Below are positions 10,592 through 55,311 of a stretch of 64,000 bases of DNA, piece after piece. The position numbers and the translations under genes were made by a program. How positions within the stretch are numbered: the stretch's first letter is position 1; each line of letters begins with the position of its first letter. The notes beneath the pieces were generated by a model that saw only the letters and a program-made list of their open reading frames with translations, did not search any database and was not told the DNA's origin. Source of the stretch: Piedraia hortae CBS 480.64 (Eukaryota). The DNA is taken from the NCBI GenBank assembly GCA_010093745.1, contig MU005982.1:124001-188000 (forward strand). Direction: 5' to 3'.

Positions 10592-11616
10592 TCACCATTC
10601 GTCATCGTCTTCGCCATAAGACTCTATTTCCTCGCTACTGGTCTCGCTAGTGCTGTCGTCAGCCGTGCAAATGTCTTCTTCGTCGTCGAAAGGTTCGTCA
10701 AAAATATCTGGCAGATCCCAAATCACGCGAACAACAGCACGGTCGTACGGCTAGACGAGAATTGTCAGCATTGGTATATCATGATAGTGGTCCACATACA
10801 GACTGAGTTTCAATCGCGCGACGGGACGGGTACGCAAGAAATGTCTTCAGGAACCCATCGGTGATTGACTCCTGCCGCGTCAAGTCTTCCGGCTGGTCCC
10901 ATGTTAGCAACACTGTAATTTCAAGGGGTCATCGAAACTCACCATCTGGCGAGTCACCAATTGGAGATTGTCATCCTCACGACCCTAGCATTCATGGTTA
11001 GTCTGTGTCATTTCATGCAAAAGTGTCCGCTGACGCTTACAACCATCATTGGGCCGACAGCCGCATAGATCTCCTGGCTTATATTATCGAGAACAGATAC
11101 AAGCACCTGCGGCAAAATTTGAACCGAAAGCGGCATTCCTGCGCGTGAGGCTGCAGCCACCTCAGCTGCCCTATGGAGGACGGCGGAGTACCAGCATCCC
11201 GTTTCATACTCGTAACGTCCATCCCACGGGTACGTGGGCCGGCGAATATCAACGAGACAGGCCAACATGTTGTTAATGGACGAGTCAATCAAGTTGCAAA
11301 TATCCCTGCAATTTAAGAAGTGGATAAGACGCTGGCCCGGAGATTTGATGGGATTCTTGTCCGATGCTGCAAAGCTCTTGATGCTTACCGCGAACAGCTT
11401 TTCGCGGAAATCGAAATAGGCTTTCGCAACGGTCGGCGGTACCATCATTGACTCAGTACCAATGATGCATTCGACGAAATATCCATATGCTCCCTTCAGC
11501 GCTTGGAGCATGTCCTTGTCCGTCAAGTCTTCCGGCTCCTTGGAAAGAAGCTTGCACAAGTTTTCCACATCCTCATTGACCTGAAGGTCGGGATAACAAG
11601 TAACGCTGTCACTCAT
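10592..11616 (-). CDS. Orphan protein A (4 coding exons, acidic C-terminus), paralog of 13070-14254
   Basis: Exon 1 from ATG 11616 to GTAAGC donor at 11040; then exons GREDDNLQLVTRQM, PEDLTRQ...AIETQS, PYDRAVVRVIWDLPD...EDDDEW*; canonical donors, CTAAC/CTGAC branch points and AG acceptors. 3' end uncertain. Confidence 0.7.
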
Positions 11617-12053
11617 CTTTGCGACAACTAGTCAGAGCGTGATATCAGAAAGATGTGTATGCGAACAGTATAAGAAAGCACTAACGTTGTGCGATGCTTG
11701 GTAGGAGATTGAAGGTAGGAGGAGTGGGGGTGGAAGATCACAGCGGCGCAGGAACGTGACATTGAAGAATGCTACCCAGTAACGCGACGCGCTTGGAAGT
11801 CAAGTTCAATACGCGCTAATCGGTGGACCCGGTCGGCCCGGGTTCGTGCATTAGTCCCAAAGCATGGACTACCTCACACTTGAGGTCTGTATGGAGATAA
11901 ATCACATCATGTATCAACGACAGCGCAACGGGGTGGTTTACACAAGCGCCATTTGGAATCCTCCGTTTTAACCTTGCTAACGACCCAACGCTACTGTCGA
12001 TACTAAAATCCTACTACTCAAAGCCTCAAAAGGGAAAGTCTTCATACGTATCC

Positions 12054-13069: not shown

Positions 13070-14254
13070 TTACTCCATCCTCAAATCCGACTTTTCGTTG
13101 CTGGTCATGCCATGTTCATCACCGGACGTCTCATCTCCATTGGTATGGCTTTTGTGATCGCCGGAAACGCCTCCATCGCTGCTGGTGTTTTCCATAGACT
13201 CGATCATGTGTTTCGTTTCCCCATTGTCGTCGGGCGATTCGACGGCCTCACGACGATTGTCCTCGGCGATGGCCTTATTGCGCCCGGCGGGATCGCCCCG
13301 GCTGTCAGGTACATTCCACACGAGGCGGACTATCGAGACGCTGTCCCCGTCCTGAGCCTCGTTCTGCTCGAGCCACGATACGAGGTCGGCCACGCTCTGA
13401 AAACCTGAGATATGGGTCGCCTGGTCGTGCGTGGTCAGCTAAAGCGTTCTCAGGGAGCGGTATGCGTACCGATGAGGCGCCAGGGAGCTTGTGCGACGGA
13501 ACGGCGATGCAAAACTCGATTGACCCGTCCGGACGAACGGTCTTCTCGCCTAACACCTTGCTTTTCTGGATAATTGTCAGTAACGCCATCAACGAAGATA
13601 TGAGCAACTCACCATCTGACGAAGGACGGAGGCTACGTCATCGGTTTCATTGCCCTGATGGTCATTGTTAGCGTGCACTTTGTCCTACAAGGGACGGCCT
13701 GCACATACGATAGCCATCCCGCCCAGGTACCCATTTATCTCCTCGTTCAGATTCCCATACACCGCGAACATCGCCGGTGGGAGGATCTGAACCGAGCCGC
13801 ACTCTGCAGCAATTGATTTCCACTCGGACTCGGCGGCTCTGTTTCGCATTTCCTGGTACCAAGACCCCGGAGCAGATGGGGACCCATCCTCTACGTTCGT
13901 CTGGTTTGCAAGCTGGTGAGCCGCGTCGGCCATCCTGTCAAGGACTCTGATGGCTTCATCGATGTCCTTGCAGATGGCCTTGTAGGCAAGGATGTGGGCG
14001 CGCGGGCCCTTGCGTCCGGTGGGCCATGCTTGGATCTTCTTCTCGAATTGCGTGTAAGACTTGAGGACCTCGGCCGGTAGAGCATGCGGCTCGGTGCCTG
14101 CGAAGTGCTCCAGGCAGAAGACATATGTGTCTTGCAGAAGTCGAACAAGATCTTTGCCCACCATCCCCTTGGGATCCGTCGAAAGCGCCGTTACGAGCTG
14201 GCGCTCCTTCTTGTTCGCGATCAGGCCGGGCATGTGGGCTGCAGGATCATCCAT
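13070..14254 (-). CDS. Orphan protein B (4 coding exons, acidic C-terminus), paralog of 10592-11616
   Basis: Exon 1 14254-13709; introns 13708-13655 (GTATGT..GCTAAC..CAG), 13612-13566 (GTGAGT..ACTGAC..CAG) and a third GTACGC..GCTGAC..CAG link ORFs 13685-14254, 13305-13607 and 13070-13393 in frame. Confidence 0.72.
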
Positions 14255-15304
14255 GACTGCCGCCAGCTGGCAATATCGTATGATTGGGCGTAGGTAGAGA
14301 TCCGCTGCTCACGCGTTGGAAGGGGGTGCGTATGGTGCGAGAGTGTGGTAGGAAGTAGGAGTTTGGTCGGAGTTTGGTCGGAGTTTGCGGGCGATTGGAT
14401 CAGCGCGTAAACGCGTCCTCGAAGCATGGCCCTGACAACACGGAACGCTAGGATGTCAAGTCCACGACGCGCTAACAGGTCAACCCGGCCGGGACGTCTG
14501 CTGCACGCAGGCGCGCAGCACGCGTCACCTACTCTCGGAAGCTTCTACCCCCCGTCGTTAGTGGTGTAAAATCAACAAGATAGAGTACACAAGGATGGAG
14601 TGCCTCGTGTCCTCCGGTTTACGTCCCCGAAAGAGGCTCTTTCTTAAGATGTCGGAGACGTGGAACGAATATAACCTACATAAACACCGGTCTCGAACTT
14701 CTGTGCACTCTATCGAACCCTTTGCTCGAGTGTGCTTGGAATGTCCCTGGCAAATATTCCAGGCGAAGTCTCGCACCCCATGGTGCCTTGCTAAAGCAAG
14801 CCAGAACGACAAACAAAGCTTCAAGGAAACATCGTTCTTGTCTCACGAGGGCGGTCAAGCTGGAATGCTTCAGGGCTGGCACACGCCTATTGGATCTGTG
14901 TAAATCCTTCCTCGTACGTTACTTCTCATACGCCTTTACCTGCATCGAAGCGGGGCCAGCCGTAAGGGTGCTTGTCGCTCTGCGGCCCACAAGCAATGTG
15001 CAACATGTATACCACCGAAGCTACGAGGCTCGACAACTTCCATTATGTGTTCGCACGAATGTTATATATGTGTGCCGATGCCTTCTTATCATAGACGAAT
15101 TTTGTTGCACGTATGGGGGTTGCCACGGTCTCACCAGTGCTCATCTTGCTCTAGACAGGTCTTCTAGTTTTGCGTACCCCTGGAGTGAGAGGGACAATAC
15201 ATGCAAACTTCAGCCACTGGTTGCACAAAAAAAAGCTCACGGACCATCGCATCGAGCATATTGTAGAAACAACGGATCAGCAACACAAGAGAATATAAAA
15301 GCTT

Positions 15305-16178: not shown

Positions 16179-18684
16179 AGTCAAAGGGGACAAACTGATA
16201 GTGTCAATGCACTAAGACTTGAATATATATGTAGTATATATAGTGCATACAAGAGGGGACATTGTTCATGGTCATCACGTGACATATTCCTCAACTCACC
16301 CCTTGTTGTGTGTGACCTGGAGTGCATTTGCCATGCAAGTGCCAATGATAGCCTGAATGAAGTCAGGGAAACCCTTTGGGCGAAAAGCTGGGAGATTCTA
16401 AGACGCACCGGCAGCCACCCCCTCAATGCGCGGCATCACTCGCCTCACCCTCTTGTCGCGCCATTGTTCCGTCTTCAATCGCTTCGGTGCAGTCTTGGAC
16501 TCCAGCTGCACACCGAAACTTGACGTAATTGAGTGCTTTGGTTAACCCGTCGGCGACTTGCTTGTCGGTTGAGATCCAATCCACCGAATCATCTCCACGA
16601 GCGGACCTTTCACGTACGAAGTGCCACCGTACATCGACATGTCTAGTTCTGCCGTCAGTCGTAGCATCTTCGTTCTGGGAGATCAAGTTTATGGCTGGCT
16701 TATTGTCCTCAAACAGTGTAACCGGCTTGATGTCTCCAGTGTACTTTAGTTCTTCCAGCAAGCGCGCCACTACGATGGCCTCCTTGGCCGCTATGCTGAG
16801 GGTACAGTATTCGGAATTCATAGAGGACAGAGTGACCAGCGGCAGCCGCCCGGATTTTTAGGCGATGGGCCCCCCGGTGAGCATGAACATGTATGCGCTT
16901 GAGAAGCGACGTGTGTTTGCGTCGTCTGCATGTGAAGCATCCGCTTAGCCCTTCAGGCCGAGTTCGCCTGTTCCGTTTCCTCGGAATACAATGCCTTATC
17001 TTTCAGTGCCCTTAAGATATCGTACGATACGCTTGGCTGTGCCGAGGTGTGCGTTGTTGGATTCAAGCATCGCCGCTAGCGCGAATGCAAGGCACTTGCA
17101 TAGCAAGTCAGTGATACCTCCTACACTACCAGCTGCACCCTAGGTTTTTCCCTCACAGAGGTTTTTCCTCAGGGTCATGTCATATGTGACATGGTGAATA
17201 CGCCCCGCTAGTGTACGACGTGACGTCACCGGCCCACCGGTACAGAATTTTCATTCTGAATGTCCCCTTATAAAAATATAGTCATTCACACTACCATGCT
17301 GCAACTGGTATTTTTGACTCATATACATCTACATCTTTCCTGTCCCTGATTCCGTCTATCGCTCTGTCCTCTTCGGGTCGCTGTGCACTCTCACCCACGA
17401 GGTCTAAATCTCTACATGCGTCTTTTGGCTTGTGTACGTACCTCGAAACTTGCAATGTCAGGGCGAGTTTGCGTTGCGAGCCACATTAGCCTACCCAATA
17501 GTGATTGATAACGATGTTTCCAGTTGGCCGGCGGGGTGTAATCCTCGCCAGCTTCTGCTTTTGCTGCCCTCAGCCCTTCCCTTGGGCTGAGCGGTATTCC
17601 AGACTCATCATAATTATCCGTGTGGTATGCGTCAGCTGTCTGTGTCACGAAGGCGACTTGAATCATGTTGACTTGTCGCTTCGTTCGATTGCGCAAGATC
17701 CTGCACCCGAGGTAAAAACTTACGTCTCCAAGGTATTGCAGACGGAACGGAACTACTGACCAAGTAAGTTGGCAGTGTGCTGTTCCTTTTCGACTGTTGA
17801 CGCGGCGATGAGTATATCGTCTACGTATATCACAATTAGCGTGCCCGCACCATTGCATAGCAAACAAGCGTCACTCCATAGAGGTGTGAAATTTATGCTG
17901 CGTAGGAAGTTGGTCAACTCTTGTTGCCAAAGCATGGGTGACTATTTTAGGCCGCATAAGCCTTTTAACAAGAGACTGACCTATATTTTGTCGGACACAA
18001 ACCCATGCGGCTGTTCCACATATATGACGTGGGCTTTAATTCTTGAGTGAAGAAATACCGTCATTACGTCGAACTGGCGGCACTCAAGATCGTATTCGGC
18101 GACGAGAGTAAGCATAGTGCGAATCGACAGAGGCTTGGCCACCGCAGCGTATGTCTCGTTATAATCTATCCCTTCTATTTTTGAGTAGCTTCGTGCTACC
18201 CAACGCGCTTAAAAACGCTCCATATTGCCATCTTCATTTCGCTTTATCTTAAAGGTCGAACGTCCTTTGATAAAATTTGCTCCGATTCTGGCTCTGACTC
18301 GCTTAGCATCAGCTCCGGCTCTAGCTCTGGCTCGCCGAGCTTTTGTATGATGGATTTTCATTTCTTTGTTGAATGATGAAGCACGTTGTTGGATCAAGTG
18401 AGTGTTAATTACGCGTTACGTGACCTTCGTTATTTGGAGGCCTCTTTACCCAACTGATGTTGAATATTCTCATCGTTGCGGAAGACCTCTTCAGAGGAAC
18501 AGCAGTGTAATAGTGTAAGCGAGTGTGCCTCTCAATCACGCTGTGTGCGCTGATCGGGCTAATAACCAGTCAAAGGGGACGAACTGATAGTGTGAGTACA
18601 CTAAGACGTGAATATATATGTATTTATATATTACATACATGAGGGGAAGTTGTTCATGGTCATCACGTGACACATACTTCAACT
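16179..18684 (-). mobile_element. Internally deleted, degenerate Ty1/copia LTR retrotransposon
   Basis: LTRs 16179-16296 and 18568-18684; PBS GGTTATTAGCCC (18556-18567, half-tRNA-iMet type); PPT AAGGGG; RT ...IVIYVDDILIA; RNase H ...RTRHVDVRWHFVRE...QVADGLTKAL; stops and frameshifts; no room for gag/PR/IN. Confidence 0.92.
17055..17416 (+). mobile_element. Solo LTR, family C, nested in the copia pol region
   Basis: TG...CA ends, TSD TGCGT (17050-17054/17417-17421). Confidence 0.92.
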
Positions 18685-18788: not shown

Positions 18789-19960
18789 ACACACAGCCTC
18801 GTCGTAACAGAGATAATCCAAACAAAAAGCCATTTTCGATGCTCTGCAGAACCCCATGGCCCGTTGAAACTTACAGCTTGGCAATACCTTGGTGCAGAGA
18901 TATAGCTATTGGTGCGTGGCGTTGTTAGGCACGGATGGAAGGCGATAAGATCGAACACAACCTGGTGCGCAAAGTCCATGATTAATGCCTACAGTGTGTT
19001 TGTGGTAAAACGAGGCCCAGCAGCGGTCGTTTAGCCACACTGAGGATCTAAGGGAAGTCATGTCGGGTGATGATTGGTTATTTCACTCTTACAAGCAAAT
19101 TGAGTTAGCAGTCATGTCGGTGATCCAGCAAGGCACCGTCGCCATGACATCCTTTGCAATCAGCGTGGTCTCATACGCGACAGTAGAGCCATAATAATCT
19201 TAGCCCTCTGGTCTACTAGCAGGTTGAAACTTGCGATGTATAGAGATCTTGCAAAATTGCCAATTTCAGGCTGCGAGATGAGGCCGCCTCTCTTGGTAAG
19301 CGCACGACTCCAAAATTTACAAGTATCTGGAACAATATGAAAAAGAACTGCTTGGACAGAATACAAGTGTGCGAAGTCATGCAGATGCTACTTCTTGACC
19401 TCTTGAAGTTTACCTGATTGTTACGACAACGCTCGGGTTAACCCGAGCCGTCGAAGCGCACAGACATGACGCACCCCCGCGCTATATTGAACCTTTCCCT
19501 CCGAGCATCGTAGCAGTGGCGATACTTGGAAATCATTTCCTCATGTGCGCTAGGCTCGGCCCGATGCACCGGTTTCCTCTATCAAAGTTTCCATCGGCGC
19601 GTGCCCACCTGTGTACGTTTGTTGTGATCCGAGGGCAAAACACCGTGGTCTTTGACAATTAACCCTTTCACGAGGGTTGCGGAATCTGGTCAATCAATCA
19701 CATAAGTGGATTGAGTATTTGTCCTTCGAATAAACCCGGGTAAGGGATATGTGAATCCTATACGGCGATTTTCGTTTCACTGTGGCCATTCACTGCCATG
19801 CACAACACTTGTTGCTCTCATTTCACAGCAACTCGTACGATGTGGTCGCCTCCGGTCCTGGAAGTTCCAAATTTGCTCTTCGACTTTCGATCCTACTCCT
19901 CCAACACACCTTTTCGCCAGCCCATCACATATTTCAATCGACAAATCATAGCCTACTGCC

Positions 19961-20527
19961 ATGCCATCCAGGGGGTTGCGTAATTTTCCCGTCCGGTGAG
20001 TTTGACCTGCTGGAGAGGTTGGAACTTAAATACTGACATCTCCAGCCGCTCAGATCGGGCCGGCGTGATTTTTCCTGTGGGACATCTGCACCGCGATCTA
20101 AGAATTACCACATCCTGCCGAATTTACAGGGAAGCGCCAGTGTTTCTGGCCGCCGTGCTGCAAAATCTCCTAGCCGAGTTATTGAACGGCGCTTGTGCCA
20201 ATGCGGCCTTGCGTGGACATTCAAGGATCGAGCCCCAGCATATCATTATGGCTGTGGTCGCCAATGAGGAATTCTGCCAGATTTTCCGCAATGTCACAAT
20301 TCCTGGGGGCGGTGTCTTGCCGGCAGCACAATGTGAGTTTTGCGATTAGCCTCCCTCGTGCAAGCCACTAACGTTATTTAGACGTGATGCCAGATCTTGA
20401 CGAGCAGGACAGCGCCCGGGACGATGTCCCGGCCTCCCCGTCGAAAGATCTAGCGGCTGCCGCAGATGGTCCCGTCGTAGTAAACTGCGGCGGTGGGAAG
20501 AAGGGGGTTGCAGTGAAGAAGCGTTAA
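19961..20527 (+). CDS. Highly divergent histone H2A variant 1 (155 aa, 3 exons)
   Basis: Exons 19961-19995, 20046-20332, 20382-20527; RSDRAGVIFPVG...APVFLAAVLQNLLAELL...RIEPQHI...NVTIPGGGVLP follows the H2A fold; open frame after splicing. Confidence 0.85.
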
Positions 20528-21254: not shown

Positions 21255-21648
21255 AGTTACGGTGCACAGACGAAAAGGCTCAATAAGTCTCAACAACGAA
21301 GACAGTCCGAACTGCTATCTACTATGAAGCTAGGGTACTATGAACCAATCCAGAAGCGCCATCCATACGCGCGCGGTAGCAAGCGTAGTGTCATAGATGG
21401 TGCAGAATGGTTTCAGAGAGCCTCTATACTGACTAGAATGTAATGACATGAAGGTTGTCATGAAATTGGTAGCTATGTGGTGCGTGATGCGGCCCGTACC
21501 GCGTAGACCCACCCATGTCCGTTCCGTCTGTACAGAACTCTCCGTAACACGTAGCTATGGATAACCAGAAGATCGCGTCGGTGTATCAGATTCACTGTGC
21601 ACTTAGACGGCGCAAGTCGTCCCGCGCACTCACAGCCTCGCCGTAACA
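21255..21648 (-). mobile_element. Degenerate family D LTR with a nested solo LTR (family F, 21389-21549)
   Basis: Insert has TG...CA ends and TSD CGTAG (21384-21388/21550-21554); the host matches 39326-39557. Confidence 0.82.
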
Positions 21649-22599: not shown

Positions 22600-23500
22600 G
22601 GCAGCATTGGTAGAGTCTAAGGCCGCGATGCCTGATGCCGGTCCGGTGGGTAACCAATTCTGAAGACCTACTGGACCTTTTGCACCTGCTCGATAATCTT
22701 CTTCTCGTTCCAGTGATTGTCAGGACCGAACTCCAAGTAATTAGCGGCTGACCGATCAACCCCGACCTGCTCCAGCTCCGCATCTCTTACGGTGTCCGGC
22801 ACCTTAAGACGACCTCAGGGGGTCAGAAACTCCGATAACATGATGACTCTGCAACCACCATTCGGCATAAATTGCTGCCGGTGACTGTCTTGTATGCGGA
22901 AGACGCACTCATCGTGCATCACAAGAATTATCTGCCGACGGCTATCGATCCATGGCTCGTCGACTATGGAGCCAACGTCATTCCATCTGGCTAAGAATGG
23001 TACCAACTTGTTGAGCTCCGCAACACACCTTTTGCGGTATTTCTTAACACCGACTCGCTCATGGCCATCCAAGTAAATGCTCCTCCGGAATCCATGCCAG
23101 CTGTAGGCCAATTGGCGCAAAAATTTGCCAAGCCGTCTCAATACTGTGTTTTTCCCCTGGAATTTGTTGGAATACCCATCACAGCTTCCATGTTGACCCA
23201 ATAGCCAGCAATGGCTATATTATCTGCACAAAGTCTAGAAATTTCTCTTCGCGGATAAGAACAAGTCTTCGTTCTCAGATAGTGACCACACTTTGGGATG
23301 CACTTCCTGCTGGCTTGGCGATATGACGCTCTTGCTCCTCCATTGTTGGTCCAACGTTTTAGCGACTTCGCGTACTCATCGCTACGATAACGGTTGCGGG
23401 TAGCTTGTAGAGAAATCAGAATGCTGTCTTCATCCAACTGGGACCCTAAGTACCGAAGTATAACCGAATACTTCGTTTGGGTCTAAATAATGGTATTTCA
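22600..23500 (-). mobile_element. Decayed fungal DDE transposase (YxDGHER...HDE...SEFLTP type); boundaries approximate
   Basis: ORF 22815-23201: IYLDGHERVGVKKYR...IILVMHDECVF...VIMLSEFLTP; frameshifted flanks. Confidence 0.7.
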
Positions 23501-37424: not shown

Positions 37425-37813
37425 CTAGAGCAAAGCATCCGCAGCGAAGGCACCCGAGGATTGTCCACCCCTGGCGAATGTGACATTACGAACCAGCTCG
37501 CTGAAGTCCACACTGCCCAAGGCCGCAGGAATATGCTGGGTCCTGAGTGTCGAGAATCCACGCAAACTCGCGTTGTTGCGAGCAATCTCCAACACCTCAG
37601 CAACAAGATATTGCAGCACAGCGGCAAGGAACACTGGCGCTGCCCTGTGGATACGGCAGCATGTGACTTTCCTTAAATTGCGCTGCACATGTCCCACTGG
37701 GAAGATAACGCCGGCCCTATCTGAGCGGCTGGAGAAGTCAGTAATTGAGTTTCAACCTCGCCAGCATTGCAAACTCACCGAACGAGAAAGGTACGTGGCT
37801 TACTGGATGGCAT
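37425..37813 (-). CDS. Highly divergent short histone H2A variant 2 (112 aa, 2 exons)
   Basis: Exons 37813-37779 and 37728-37425; MPSSKPRTFLVRRSDRAGVIFPVG...APVFLAAVLQYLVAEVLEIARNNA...RNVTFARGG; same intron position as variant 1. Confidence 0.82.
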
Positions 37814-38159
37814 TGCAGCAGGTTAGAAGTGGTCGGTTGGGGATTCGTGGCGAGCTGGCGAATGTGTAGGTGGAAGTAGGATCGAAGATCGGACAGGAAG
37901 GTCAGAACGGGTTCCAAGTCCATGGAGGCGACCACGTCATACGAGGTGGTGTGGAAAGAGAGCTACGAAGGACGTGCATTGACGTTAGACGGCTGAAGAG
38001 CAACGACCGTTGCCCTGTAGACATTCACAGACCCTGCGCCGGAGGTTTATCCAAAGGAAAAACTACTCCTAATGCCAGAATGTGAATAATTGACCAGGAT
38101 GAGCACCCCCAGTGGTTTTATGAGAAGTCTAGTGAATCGGATTGAGCCTACCACAGACA

Positions 38160-53017: not shown

Positions 53018-54574
53018 TTAGACGATTTGATACTTGTTGAGGCCAAGCGTGCTAGCAAGCCCAACATTACCGTCGACCAAGTCACTGATCTGCGTACAAG
53101 CAGCTTCAACGATATCGGCTTTGGATAGACGTCCCCAGCGGGGGAGCTGCAGGAGCTGCTGAAGCTCACCGAACATCGTCATTATATTGACACGGCGATG
53201 TTTCTCCGCCGCGATATGCTTCTGACGACGATATTCAGCGCGTGAATTCGGTGACAACGGATGGGCAGCATTGCCATGAGCCTGGGAGCAATGACCATTA
53301 GAGGCCCCGTTGGGATAGTGGCCCCTATTGAAACCGGCAGGTACATTGTGCCCGTTATTGTTTTTGACAATGTACGCAGGCCCAGCCCCAGAGCCGGGGG
53401 TGAGATTGCCGTTGTACTGAACAGGCCCGTTACCCCAGAGACGCTGCAAGGGCCCCGGACCAGCGGGCGTGGGCATCATGCCGCCGCCGGCCGCGATATT
53501 GGGGTTCGTCATCAGATAATTGCCTGTAGGATCGCCGGGACCGTAACCGACATGGGCGCCGTGAGATTGAGCTGTCGTATTGAACAAGTTCGTAAGCTGA
53601 TCACGCTGAGTGTAAGTAGTCTGCTGCGAATTTGGCATGTTGTTGAAGTTGAATTCAGACTGATCAACTGCATCGCTAAATTCGGTGTTGTCGCAGTGAC
53701 GCTGTGAATTACAAGTGACAGCGCGATTGAAGTTGTTTTGGCCTTCACGCTGGTTACCATTTTGGTTATTCACAGCATAGTAGTTGCCGGCTTGGCCAGG
53801 CTGGGTGGGTCCACCATTCAAAGCCGAAATCGTGGCAAAAATTGACCCCGGATCAATATTTTCTTTGTCGGCTTGAATTTCATTGTCATTGCGACCCGGG
53901 TACTTGCCCTCATTAACTTCATGATTTAACACATGGTTGCCCTCATTAAGATAAGCGTCCGGGCGCACGTGATCCATGTCCTGAGTGGAGCCCTCAAGCC
54001 AGGAGTCCTCAAAAACATTGAACTCAGTACCAGCAGTTACACCGGCCAAGAGTCCACCGCTAATGCCCTGAGGCTGGCCTGCATTCGAGTTGCCAACATA
54101 GCCAGTGACATTGACAATCGACCTATAATCCGGCATCTCACCGGCATTTTGGGGGTAAACGGCGGGTACCGAGTCTTGCATATCGCCACTTAAGGCCTTG
54201 AGTTCAGCATCCTTGAAAAAAGTTCCCTTAAGCCCGCCAGGCCCATCATCAATGCCGAGGGCAGGGTCATAAACGTTGACAGAGCCCTGCTGAGGGTTAT
54301 CAAAGGATTCAGCAAAAGCAGCAAAGTCCGGAAAACCAGCCAGGGCGTGGCCCAGAGAGCCATGGGTACCCATGTTAGCCACAGCAGCATAATTGGCCTC
54401 AATAGGGACAATAGGTCCCATGCCAGCATCACCCGGAACCGGGGAGTACAAGCTCACCTTGTTGGCATCGCCAAGCATGGCCTTAAAACAATCGTCGATA
54501 TTAAAACTCAAATCATACTGATGAGTAGGGGTTTTGGGGGGGCTGCCCTCATGGTTGCCTCCAGGTTCATTCAT
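53018..54574 (-). CDS. bHLH transcription factor (C-terminal bHLH, N/G/Q-rich disordered N-terminus)
   Basis: RRQKHIAAEKHRRVNIMTMFGELQQLL...LSKADIVEAACTQI; likely ATG 54574. Confidence 0.8.
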   Translation of the reverse strand: MNEPGGNHEGSPPKTPTHQYDLSFNIDDCFKAMLGDANKVSLYSPVPGDAGMGPIVPIEANYAAVANMGTHGSLGHALAGFPDFAAFAESFDNPQQGSVNVYDPALGIDDGPGGLKGTFFKDAELKALSGDMQDSVPAVYPQNAGEMPDYRSIVNVTGYVGNSNAGQPQGISGGLLAGVTAGTEFNVFEDSWLEGSTQDMDHVRPDAYLNEGNHVLNHEVNEGKYPGRNDNEIQADKENIDPGSIFATISALNGGPTQPGQAGNYYAVNNQNGNQREGQNNFNRAVTCNSQRHCDNTEFSDAVDQSEFNFNNMPNSQQTTYTQRDQLTNLFNTTAQSHGAHVGYGPGDPTGNYLMTNPNIAAGGGMMPTPAGPGPLQRLWGNGPVQYNGNLTPGSGAGPAYIVKNNNGHNVPAGFNRGHYPNGASNGHCSQAHGNAAHPLSPNSRAEYRRQKHIAAEKHRRVNIMTMFGELQQLLQLPRWGRLSKADIVEAACTQISDLVDGNVGLASTLGLNKYQIV

Positions 54575-55311
54575 GATAGCACAAGTCTGCAGTGCTTTAA
54601 AGCTGGAGTCAATGAAGGAGGTTGAAAGAGTGTTTAGTGGATTTTCCGAATTTAGGAGAAGTGTGGTGTGTGGTAAAGGTGCAGAGGGAAGCACATGCAA
54701 TTTTAGATATGTTGACGCAAGTGGAGTTTGTTGACGCGGCGATATGTTGTCGAGACGTTGTCGTCGTTGTTATGATCTAGAACGTGACGTGTTGTTAGCG
54801 GCATTTTTGTGTACGGAAAACCGGACAGCTTTGCTTCTCAAATAGCAGGCACGGTAAAAATCTTGCAACGGCGCCAAGTTGTTATAGTCTTCGTTATGTT
54901 GTATGTGGATCAGAAACGCCTATGATGTGGAACAGAAGGGGTGCGTGAAATTGATTCGACATGTGGAGAGGCATGTGTGTCAAAAGATCTTTCGCTGCTA
55001 TGTACAATCCTTGAATGTACACGTGCAAACAATACTACTGAATACCACTTGAATAATCGTGTAAAAAGATCCATGTGATGCTATGGATGTTGGAAAATTA
55101 TGGAGTTTGCCAAGCAAACAAGCGGGCCGGGCCGAACCGAGTAAGACCCACCCATCTCGCGCTTGTTTGGATGACGTGGTTTGTTTGTTCGTAGGGCATA
55201 AAGGCATGCTTGATCGGTAAACATTTGTTTCTATTAACCACAGCAGCTCCGCGGTCCAAGCCCATCTAAGGAAATCAAAGCTTAGTCATTCGACGCTTGA
55301 ACGTCACGCAT

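Follow-up and report, generated by a model that had tools for sequence, protein, structure and literature searches.

The H2A repertoire of fungi is described as having two members, an H2A.X-type H2A and H2A.Z, along with a few rare variants that differ at one site. In other lineages, plant H2A.W, bdelloid H2Abd and the brown-algal H2A.N/O/E keep a largely conserved core, and the nucleosomes of mammalian short H2As are labile and wrap ~120-130 bp. The H2A.X type is defined by an SQ(E/D)-hydrophobic motif, and a table in the same review lists 'SPKK-bearing H2As' (PMC3380720, in part). Mammalian short H2As are marked by a truncated C-terminus and docking domain, a tail with arginine for lysine, an altered acidic patch and the loss of minor-groove arginines in L1 and L2 (10.1101/165936, in part). 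Lineage-specific H2As are reported from algae (PMC12459048) and rotifers (PMC2642717), and a CTG-clade H3 is a further fungal histone variant (PMC6703697), as far as the available parts of these papers go.

The window analysed here is a stretch of 64,000 nucleotides of Piedraia hortae CBS 480.64 (contig MU005982.1, positions 124,001 to 188,000), and the genome assembly searched comprises 16.9 Mb in 132 contigs. Gene pairs of H2A with H2B and of H3 with H4, short introns and an H2A that ends in SQEL point to a filamentous ascomycete. The window carries an H2A-variant gene at 19961-20527 (copy A). Two paralogues, overlooked by an earlier sequence-only reading, are present in the genome, one in the same window (B) and one on contig C88 (C). 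Copy A is a real, intact, lineage-restricted H2A variant that has apparently not been described before. It is organised as follows:

19686-19960, plus strand: upstream region common to copy A and paralogue B, promoter/5′ UTR or merely a duplicated segment
19961-19995, plus strand: exon 1, short arginine-rich, lysine-free N-tail of 12 codons, versus 19 in canonical H2A
19996-20045, plus strand: intron 1, 50 nt, phase 2, at the same position as in canonical H2A and paralogue B
20046-20332, plus strand: exon 2, with the histone fold of H2A and a docking domain of full length
20333-20381, plus strand: intron 2, 49 nt, phase 1, at the same position as in canonical H2A and retained in paralogue C
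20382-20473, plus strand: acidic part of the exon 3 tail, residues 108-138, net charge -6
20474-20527, plus strand: basic tip of exon 3 and stop codon, residues 139-155, net charge +5, with two KK pairs that are homologous in paralogue C

The sequence-only reading had proposed an intact three-exon gene, and all its parts could be located: frame, start, stop (TAA) and four splice sites are intact, and both introns are of the GT..AG type with CTRAC-type branch sites. GC3 is 59%. Three upstream ATGs precede the start (19749, 19798 and 19840), the last of which is out of frame and opens a reading frame that overlaps the start of copy A.

The 155-aa product departs from canonical H2A in composition as well as in sequence. 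Lysine occurs only at residues 129, 147, 148, 153 and 154, in keeping with the claim that the first ~125 residues lack it. Among 148 H2A representatives that are themselves divergent (median five lysines), a single one has such a lysine-free core, and the chance of 128 lysine-free codons at window composition is ~0.01. The 'several' cysteines noted earlier are four (residues 36, 62, 89 and 143), and the short arginine-rich N-tail and the acidic-then-basic tail were likewise recognised correctly. Net charge is +2 in the core and +4 in the whole protein, compared with +7 and +13 for canonical H2A. Exon 2 carries two single-codon deletions relative to canonical H2A, one in loop L1 and one at the exon end. 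The C-tail of 48 residues is unrelated to that of canonical H2A. The positions of K118, K119 and T120 are occupied by D, L and D. A single S-P-x-K motif (SPSK, residues 126-129; 20435-20446), also found in paralogue C, is all that the tail offers in the way of the SPKK motif of plant H2A.W. The canonical copy ends in SQEL, whereas copy A has no SQ(E/D)-hydrophobic motif, as had been stated, and no S/T-Q dipeptide anywhere in the protein. It thus falls outside the H2A.X type.

Despite this divergence, copy A is a histone H2A with a histone fold and a C-terminal docking domain. Exon 2 matched PF00125 with 28.5 bits (cut-off 26.4) and the H2A C-terminal family PF16211 (Histone_H2A_C) with 23.1 bits (cut-off 20). 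At E<=0.001, 206 PDB sequences matched (best E 8e-20), and all 60 of the 60 matches listed were H2A-type. An AlphaFold2 model built on a 54-row alignment showed the H2A helices with a mean pLDDT of 87, and its best Foldseek matches were nucleosomal chains with a TM of ~0.8. Since an alignment of normal H2As biases the model toward the H2A fold, it speaks for compatibility with that fold, not for stability.

The origin of the gene can be read from its introns. A protein search of the genome with exon 2 returned five matches: copy A, paralogues B and C, the canonical H2A (contig C11) and H2A.Z (contig C13). The canonical gene has a phase 2 intron in codon 19 and a phase 1 intron in codon 117, and copy A is interrupted at the aligned codons 12 and 108 in identical phases. 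In H2A.Z, the donors lie after nt 16 (phase 1) and after nt 105 (phase 0), positions that differ from those of copy A. As both intron positions are common with canonical H2A, copy A is a DNA-level duplicate of H2A and not of H2A.Z, and the length of its docking domain is also of the H2A type, not of the shorter H2A.Z type. Against the genome's canonical H2A, identity is 45% over 93 residues; with only three of the six patch residues and D/L for K118/K119, the protein does not have a canonical core, and 24 of its changes sit at columns that are at least 70% conserved.

A FastTree analysis of 152 cores might suggest otherwise, namely that copy A derives from H2A.Z or belongs to a wider variant clade already described. 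Copy A and paralogue B paired with a support of 0.99 but attached among long branches with a support of 0.41, close to the H2A.Z clade and at patristic distances of 1.61 from H2A.Z and 1.69 from H2A. This placement looks like long-branch attraction, and the protein tree alone cannot place the family. H2A.Z descent is ruled out by the intron positions, and none of 148 outside proteins was nearer to copy A than to canonical H2A, so that we give this alternative as a whole next to no credence. Of the phylogenetic check suggested with the sequence-only reading, the tree part gave only the low-support placement and the introns assigned the gene to H2A; the check for grouping with a described variant clade found none among the proteins compared.

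Outside this genome, no orthologue was found. A word-index search gave four candidates, of which the two matches were copy A and paralogue B themselves on the same contig. In a search for longer proteins, 8000 candidates were scored and the 30 matches were generic H2A, macroH2A and doublets; the one basidiomycete match inspected was a canonical-type H2A. HMMER returned 2845 matches at E<=0.001, and among the best 150 of these none was family-specific. These 150 include 148 outside proteins with a full core, the best of them 52% identical to copy A; ten matches were looked up and the organisms named among them were tick, fish, pseudoscorpion and two plants. A metagenome scan produced 407 pattern matches, none confirmed. 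The collections searched contain no raw eukaryotic genomes, and an orthologue that a sister species carries without annotation could have escaped. In a feature search of the ESM Atlas, a cluster named H2A.P came second with a score of 0.89, which we treat as a lead only. The literature searched, including the available parts of the reviews PMC9145779, PMC3380720 and PMC8015243, held no comparably divergent fungal H2A, though HistoneDB, supplements and subscription papers may list one. With canonical-H2A introns and no outside orthologue found, the earlier suggestion of an independent origin in the fungal lineage is upheld.

A DNA search of the genome likewise found copies A, B and C and nothing further of the family. 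The paralogues are laid out as follows:

37425-37813 (window), minus strand: paralogue B, with exon 1 at 37813-37779, intron at 37778-37729 and exon 2 at 37728-37425
37814-38097 (window), minus strand: region upstream of paralogue B, homologous to 19686-19960
~26.9-27.6 kb (contig C88), minus strand: paralogue C, frameshifted by 2-nt and 13-nt deletions, its 5′ third unalignable

Paralogue B, 17 kb from copy A, is an open frame of 112 aa with 60% identity to copy A in the core. Intron 1 is intact, but intron 2 and the tail are missing and the protein stops after the docking-domain glycines; R29, R77, P80, R81, D90 and E91 are also absent. It is either a nearer analogue of a short H2A than copy A is, or a decaying copy. 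Paralogue C still has E56 and D90. Besides the second half of exon 2 it retains the tail, intron 2 and a 3′ flank of ~160 nt, and these last three are 68-80% identical to those of copy A. By blastn, copy A and paralogue B are 71% identical over 19686-20298 versus 38097-37479. The shared segment consists of the gene plus 275 nt, and no similarity was found past either end. In the upstream part, the clustering of matches was not above chance (p 0.29), and conserved promoter blocks were not significant.

The core of this family has evolved under purifying selection. Core dN/dS was 0.39 between A and B (88 codons; LRT versus 1, p 0.0009), 0.40 between A and C (68 codons, p 0.005) and 0.37 between B and C (61 codons, p 0.019), and the NG86 estimate for A-B was 0.33 (bootstrap 0.18-0.55). 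In the A-B alignment, 9 frameshift-length gaps fall in 271 upstream columns and none in 300 coding bases (p 0.001, a result that depends on the settings of the aligner), and relative to paralogue B and canonical H2A the indels of copy A are in-frame only. We simulated an unselected copy (1500 runs) at a divergence of 0.17, half the A-B non-coding distance: frame and splice sites were kept in 3.4% of runs without indels and in at most 0.3% with indels. Changes that A and B have in common are scarcer at conserved H2A columns (4/39) than at variable ones (17/49, p 0.011). Taken together, the dN/dS, gap, simulation and column evidence indicates that the family was once protein-coding and constrained as an H2A, and the notion of an evolved variant gains support at the level of the family.

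Whether copy A itself is still constrained is a separate matter. It could be a decaying duplicate, a once-selected variant lately released or silent, with its odd residues partly due to degeneration; we consider this a real possibility, if well short of an even chance. Its siblings are truncated (B) or frameshifted (C), and it is surrounded by interspersed repeats and lies apart from the H2A-H2B pair. Four set-ups of branch models did not assign purifying selection to its branch (p 1.0, 0.28, 0.70 and 0.18), leaving its own dN/dS indistinguishable from 1, with a dS on that branch that ranged from 0.07 to 0.81 across models. Changes private to copy A, among them Y57N and E64N, are as frequent at conserved as at variable columns (3/39 and 4/49), and those private to paralogue B number 4/39 and 3/49, all small numbers. 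Non-coding parts equal or exceed the core exon in conservation: A-B identity is 72% upstream (199/277 columns), 84% in intron 1 (interior 22/29), 68% in exon 2 and 24/37 at four-fold sites, and A-C identity is 80% in intron 2 (39/49), 76% in exon 3 and 61% in exon 2. Against this yardstick the constraint on codon positions 1 and 2 (71% and 81%) looks weak. In the simulation, a neutral copy survived intact in 30-66% of cases at a divergence of 0.02 and in 4-35% at 0.05. However, survival fell to at most 13% at a divergence of 0.1, and in copy A the frame is unbroken, the two introns and the full tail are present and indels are in-frame only. Copy A also keeps R42, R77, E61, E91, E92 and the docking-domain motif, several of which are lost in B.

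The surroundings of the gene raise a further explanation, that the family consists of transposon-carried, RIP-mutated copies like the hAT-captured H3 of Dothideomycetes. The DNA is repeat-rich and the H3 case provides a precedent, in which hAT transduplication gave extra histone copies in repeat-rich DNA (PMC6710886, in part). The H3 copies number tens to hundreds and mostly carry RIP stops, whereas the copy A family has three members without RIP bias; the word 'H2A' does not occur in the text of that paper. Two of the three frames are open with a dN/dS of 0.4, 8 of 56 context-scored A-B transitions fall at CpA and there is no CpA-to-TpA bias, RIP indices are like the window average, GC3 is 59%, and the shared segment does not extend beyond the gene and its 275 nt. 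The lack of a RIP signature argues against transposon capture as described for H3. Three copies, no CpA bias and open frames largely refute this origin, and we judge it very improbable.

Several features of the neighbourhood were recorded on the way. Between 6000 and 56000 the window contains several interspersed-repeat families of 100-800 nt with 71-95% identity (for example 21256-21388 and four other copies), and three repeat pairs that were scored showed no RIP-type CpA bias. Within 2-3 kb of copy A lie decayed frames at 16423-17870 and 22815-23219 (both minus strand), which by eye resemble Copia-type reverse transcriptase/RNase H and a DDE transposase; ten nearby frames gave no Pfam transposase match at E<=0.01. 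Two orphan frames of ~200 aa each, 11008-11631 and 13685-14308 (both minus strand), are faintly alike in layout, have no Pfam match and are possibly a divergent gene pair. At 53018-54769 (minus strand), a long low-complexity frame ends in a bHLH domain (PF00010, E 7e-9).

The canonical H2A is arranged head-to-head with H2B, while copy A is solitary. One H2B gene was found in the genome, and genome profile searches showed no divergent H2B or H4 partner. A histone-fold match to PF15511 (CENP-T_C, above cut-off) at C9:122211-122315, absent from the PF00125 search, is probably of the CENP-T/TAF type. The H3 of both H3-H4 pairs (contigs C66 and C101) has Met for Ala at position 29, adjoining K27/S28.

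To describe the core we number residues as in human H2A, a register we take as given; it puts the acidic residues of the canonical copy exactly on the published patch positions. The acidic patch comprises E56, E61, E64, D90, E91 and E92 (six residues, as defined in the available parts of PMC10878826 and PMC9396995). The principal substitutions of copy A all lie in exon 2:

20083-20085, plus strand: R29H
20161-20163, plus strand: E56Q
20185-20187, plus strand: E64N
20236-20238, plus strand: R81Q
20257-20259, plus strand: R88V
20263-20265, plus strand: D90N

The changes at the acidic patch that had been reported, including LEY to LQN, are all present as E56Q, E64N and D90N; since E61, E91 and E92 are retained, the patch loses only three of its six residues. 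R29H, E56Q and R81Q, which sit at columns conserved to at least 96%, occur in copy A and paralogue B alike and are assigned to the stem of the family. Further core changes are Y57N, L65G, G67C, K74G and K75H, of which L65G and G67C are absent or almost so among 148 divergent H2As. Asn at position 57 also occurs in the best PDB match, 7d69 chain C, presumably the H2A of the Giardia nucleosome, so that Y57N alone does not disqualify copy A. Retained are R17, R20, R32, R35, R42, R77, the three patch residues E61, E91 and E92, and a docking domain of full length.

Published work on these positions gives an idea of what the changes may do. R81A/R88A lowers the salt stability of nucleosomes from 800 to 568 mM (PMC5643395), R29Q/F removes a DNA contact and is common to short H2As and cancer mutants (oncohistones) (PMC7817690), and remodelers and the H4 tail dock on the patch (PMC9396995), each as given in the part of the source available. 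The substitutions at R81/R88, R29 and the patch bear out, as a prediction, the earlier proposal of a possibly nucleosome-destabilising variant. With its minor-groove arginines and docking-domain length retained, copy A should still assemble.

We therefore propose a scheme that starts from what the analysis showed, namely the structure, origin and fold of the gene, its substitutions and the selection on the family, and in which expression, H2B binding, incorporation, destabilisation and any role of copy A are inferred. The family goes back to a DNA-level copy of canonical H2A that was made in this fungal lineage with both introns, and it diverged under relaxed but real purifying selection. It would be turning over by birth and death, with A intact, B truncated but open and C frameshifted. 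Copy A would be spliced and translated at a low level or in a single stage, and its protein would pair with the genome's single H2B and displace canonical H2A in some nucleosomes. The loss of R29, K74/K75, R81 and R88, with the lower core charge, is predicted to weaken contacts with DNA and H3-H4, and the loss of E56, E64 and D90 to weaken the patch for remodelers and H4-tail compaction. Without core lysines, K119, T120 and SQ, the variant would not take up the usual H2A marks, namely acetylation, ubiquitylation and those of Bub1 and of DNA damage. The basic tip may stand in for the lost N-tail as a nuclear signal or a linker-DNA contact. The expected outcome is an open, labile, modification-inert chromatin, convergent on that of mammalian short H2As but long-tailed.

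The same residues could be read in favour of a functional decoy outside the nucleosome, a titrating or dominant-negative histone-fold protein with H2B, importins or a chaperone of the Nap1/FACT type as its partner. Its acidic tail would mimic DNA or a chaperone, with the basic tip as nuclear signal. Neither of the H3-H4-facing arginines R81 and R88 remains, and the core is constrained and nearly neutral; the long acidic stretch followed by a basic tip is homologous in paralogue C. On the other hand, the DNA-contacting R17, R20, R32, R35, R42 and R77 and the docking-domain strand, for which a free decoy has no need, are kept, and constraint on the tail is not significant (dN/dS 0.69, indistinguishable from 1). 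We consider the decoy unlikely.

Our preferred reading, to which we assign a probability of about 50%, is that the copy A family represents lineage-specific, nucleosome-loosening H2A variants in birth-and-death turnover. A bolder form of it is tentative and, on balance, doubtful: the fungus may have independently evolved an expressed nucleosome-destabilising system, composed of the full-length, lysine-free, patch-eroded copy A and the truncated, short-H2A-like B, that opens or strips chromatin at one particular stage, for instance during sexual development or the formation of spores. Such a system would be convergent with the short H2As of the mammalian germline and with the oncohistone sites R29, E56 and R81/R88, in a genome whose main H3 has a rare change beside K27. 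If the preferred reading is true, a selected fungal family has arrived at the short-H2A combination of an Arg-for-Lys tail, an eroded patch and the loss of R29, but it retains the docking domain and has gained a long tail. It would then be a natural experiment that separates patch, DNA-contact and docking changes and is testable in yeast or in vitro. If copy A is instead a decaying duplicate, it is a curiosity. The three copies capture the birth and death of a histone variant within one genome.

Among fungal histones, several cases invite comparison. The genome's own H2A, as the canonical ascomycete form, shares with copy A both intron positions and phases, the fold and the length of the docking domain, and differs in being paired with H2B, in its SQEL end, its lysine-rich N-tail, its six patch residues and its higher net charge (+13). 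Candida albicans also has a lineage-restricted H2A paralogue, one without the S/T120-121 Bub1 site (PMC6613695, in part); there a single phosphorylation site is lost, whereas copy A is ~55% diverged with both core and tail remodelled. H4E, an ascomycete H4 variant, is likewise a divergent fungal core histone of unknown function (PMC10878826, in part), but it is old and occurs across Pezizomycotina, while copy A is an H2A found in one genome only. Beyond fungi, plant H2A.W, bdelloid H2Abd and brown-algal H2A.N/O/E resemble copy A as lineage-specific H2As with a novel C-tail.

The mammalian short H2As (H2A.B, H2A.L, H2A.P and H2A.Q), to which the sequence-only reading had likened the gene, share with copy A an N-tail with arginine for lysine, the absence of K119, an altered patch (in part, for copy A) and a changed R29, and with its family a fast evolution and gene turnover (10.1101/165936 and PMC7817690, as far as available). 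The likeness holds for lysine loss, patch erosion and the loss of R29. It does not hold for truncation of the docking domain and C-terminus or for loss of the minor-groove arginines: in copy A the docking domain is untruncated, the C-tail long, and R42/R77 and E61/E91/E92 are kept. There is no shared descent either: by its introns, copy A derives from the H2A of this fungal genome, outside the eutherian, X-linked, testis-expressed clade. Paralogue B is truncated and carries more of the short-H2A marks than copy A. Copy A is thus not a short H2A, though it is predicted to work like one.
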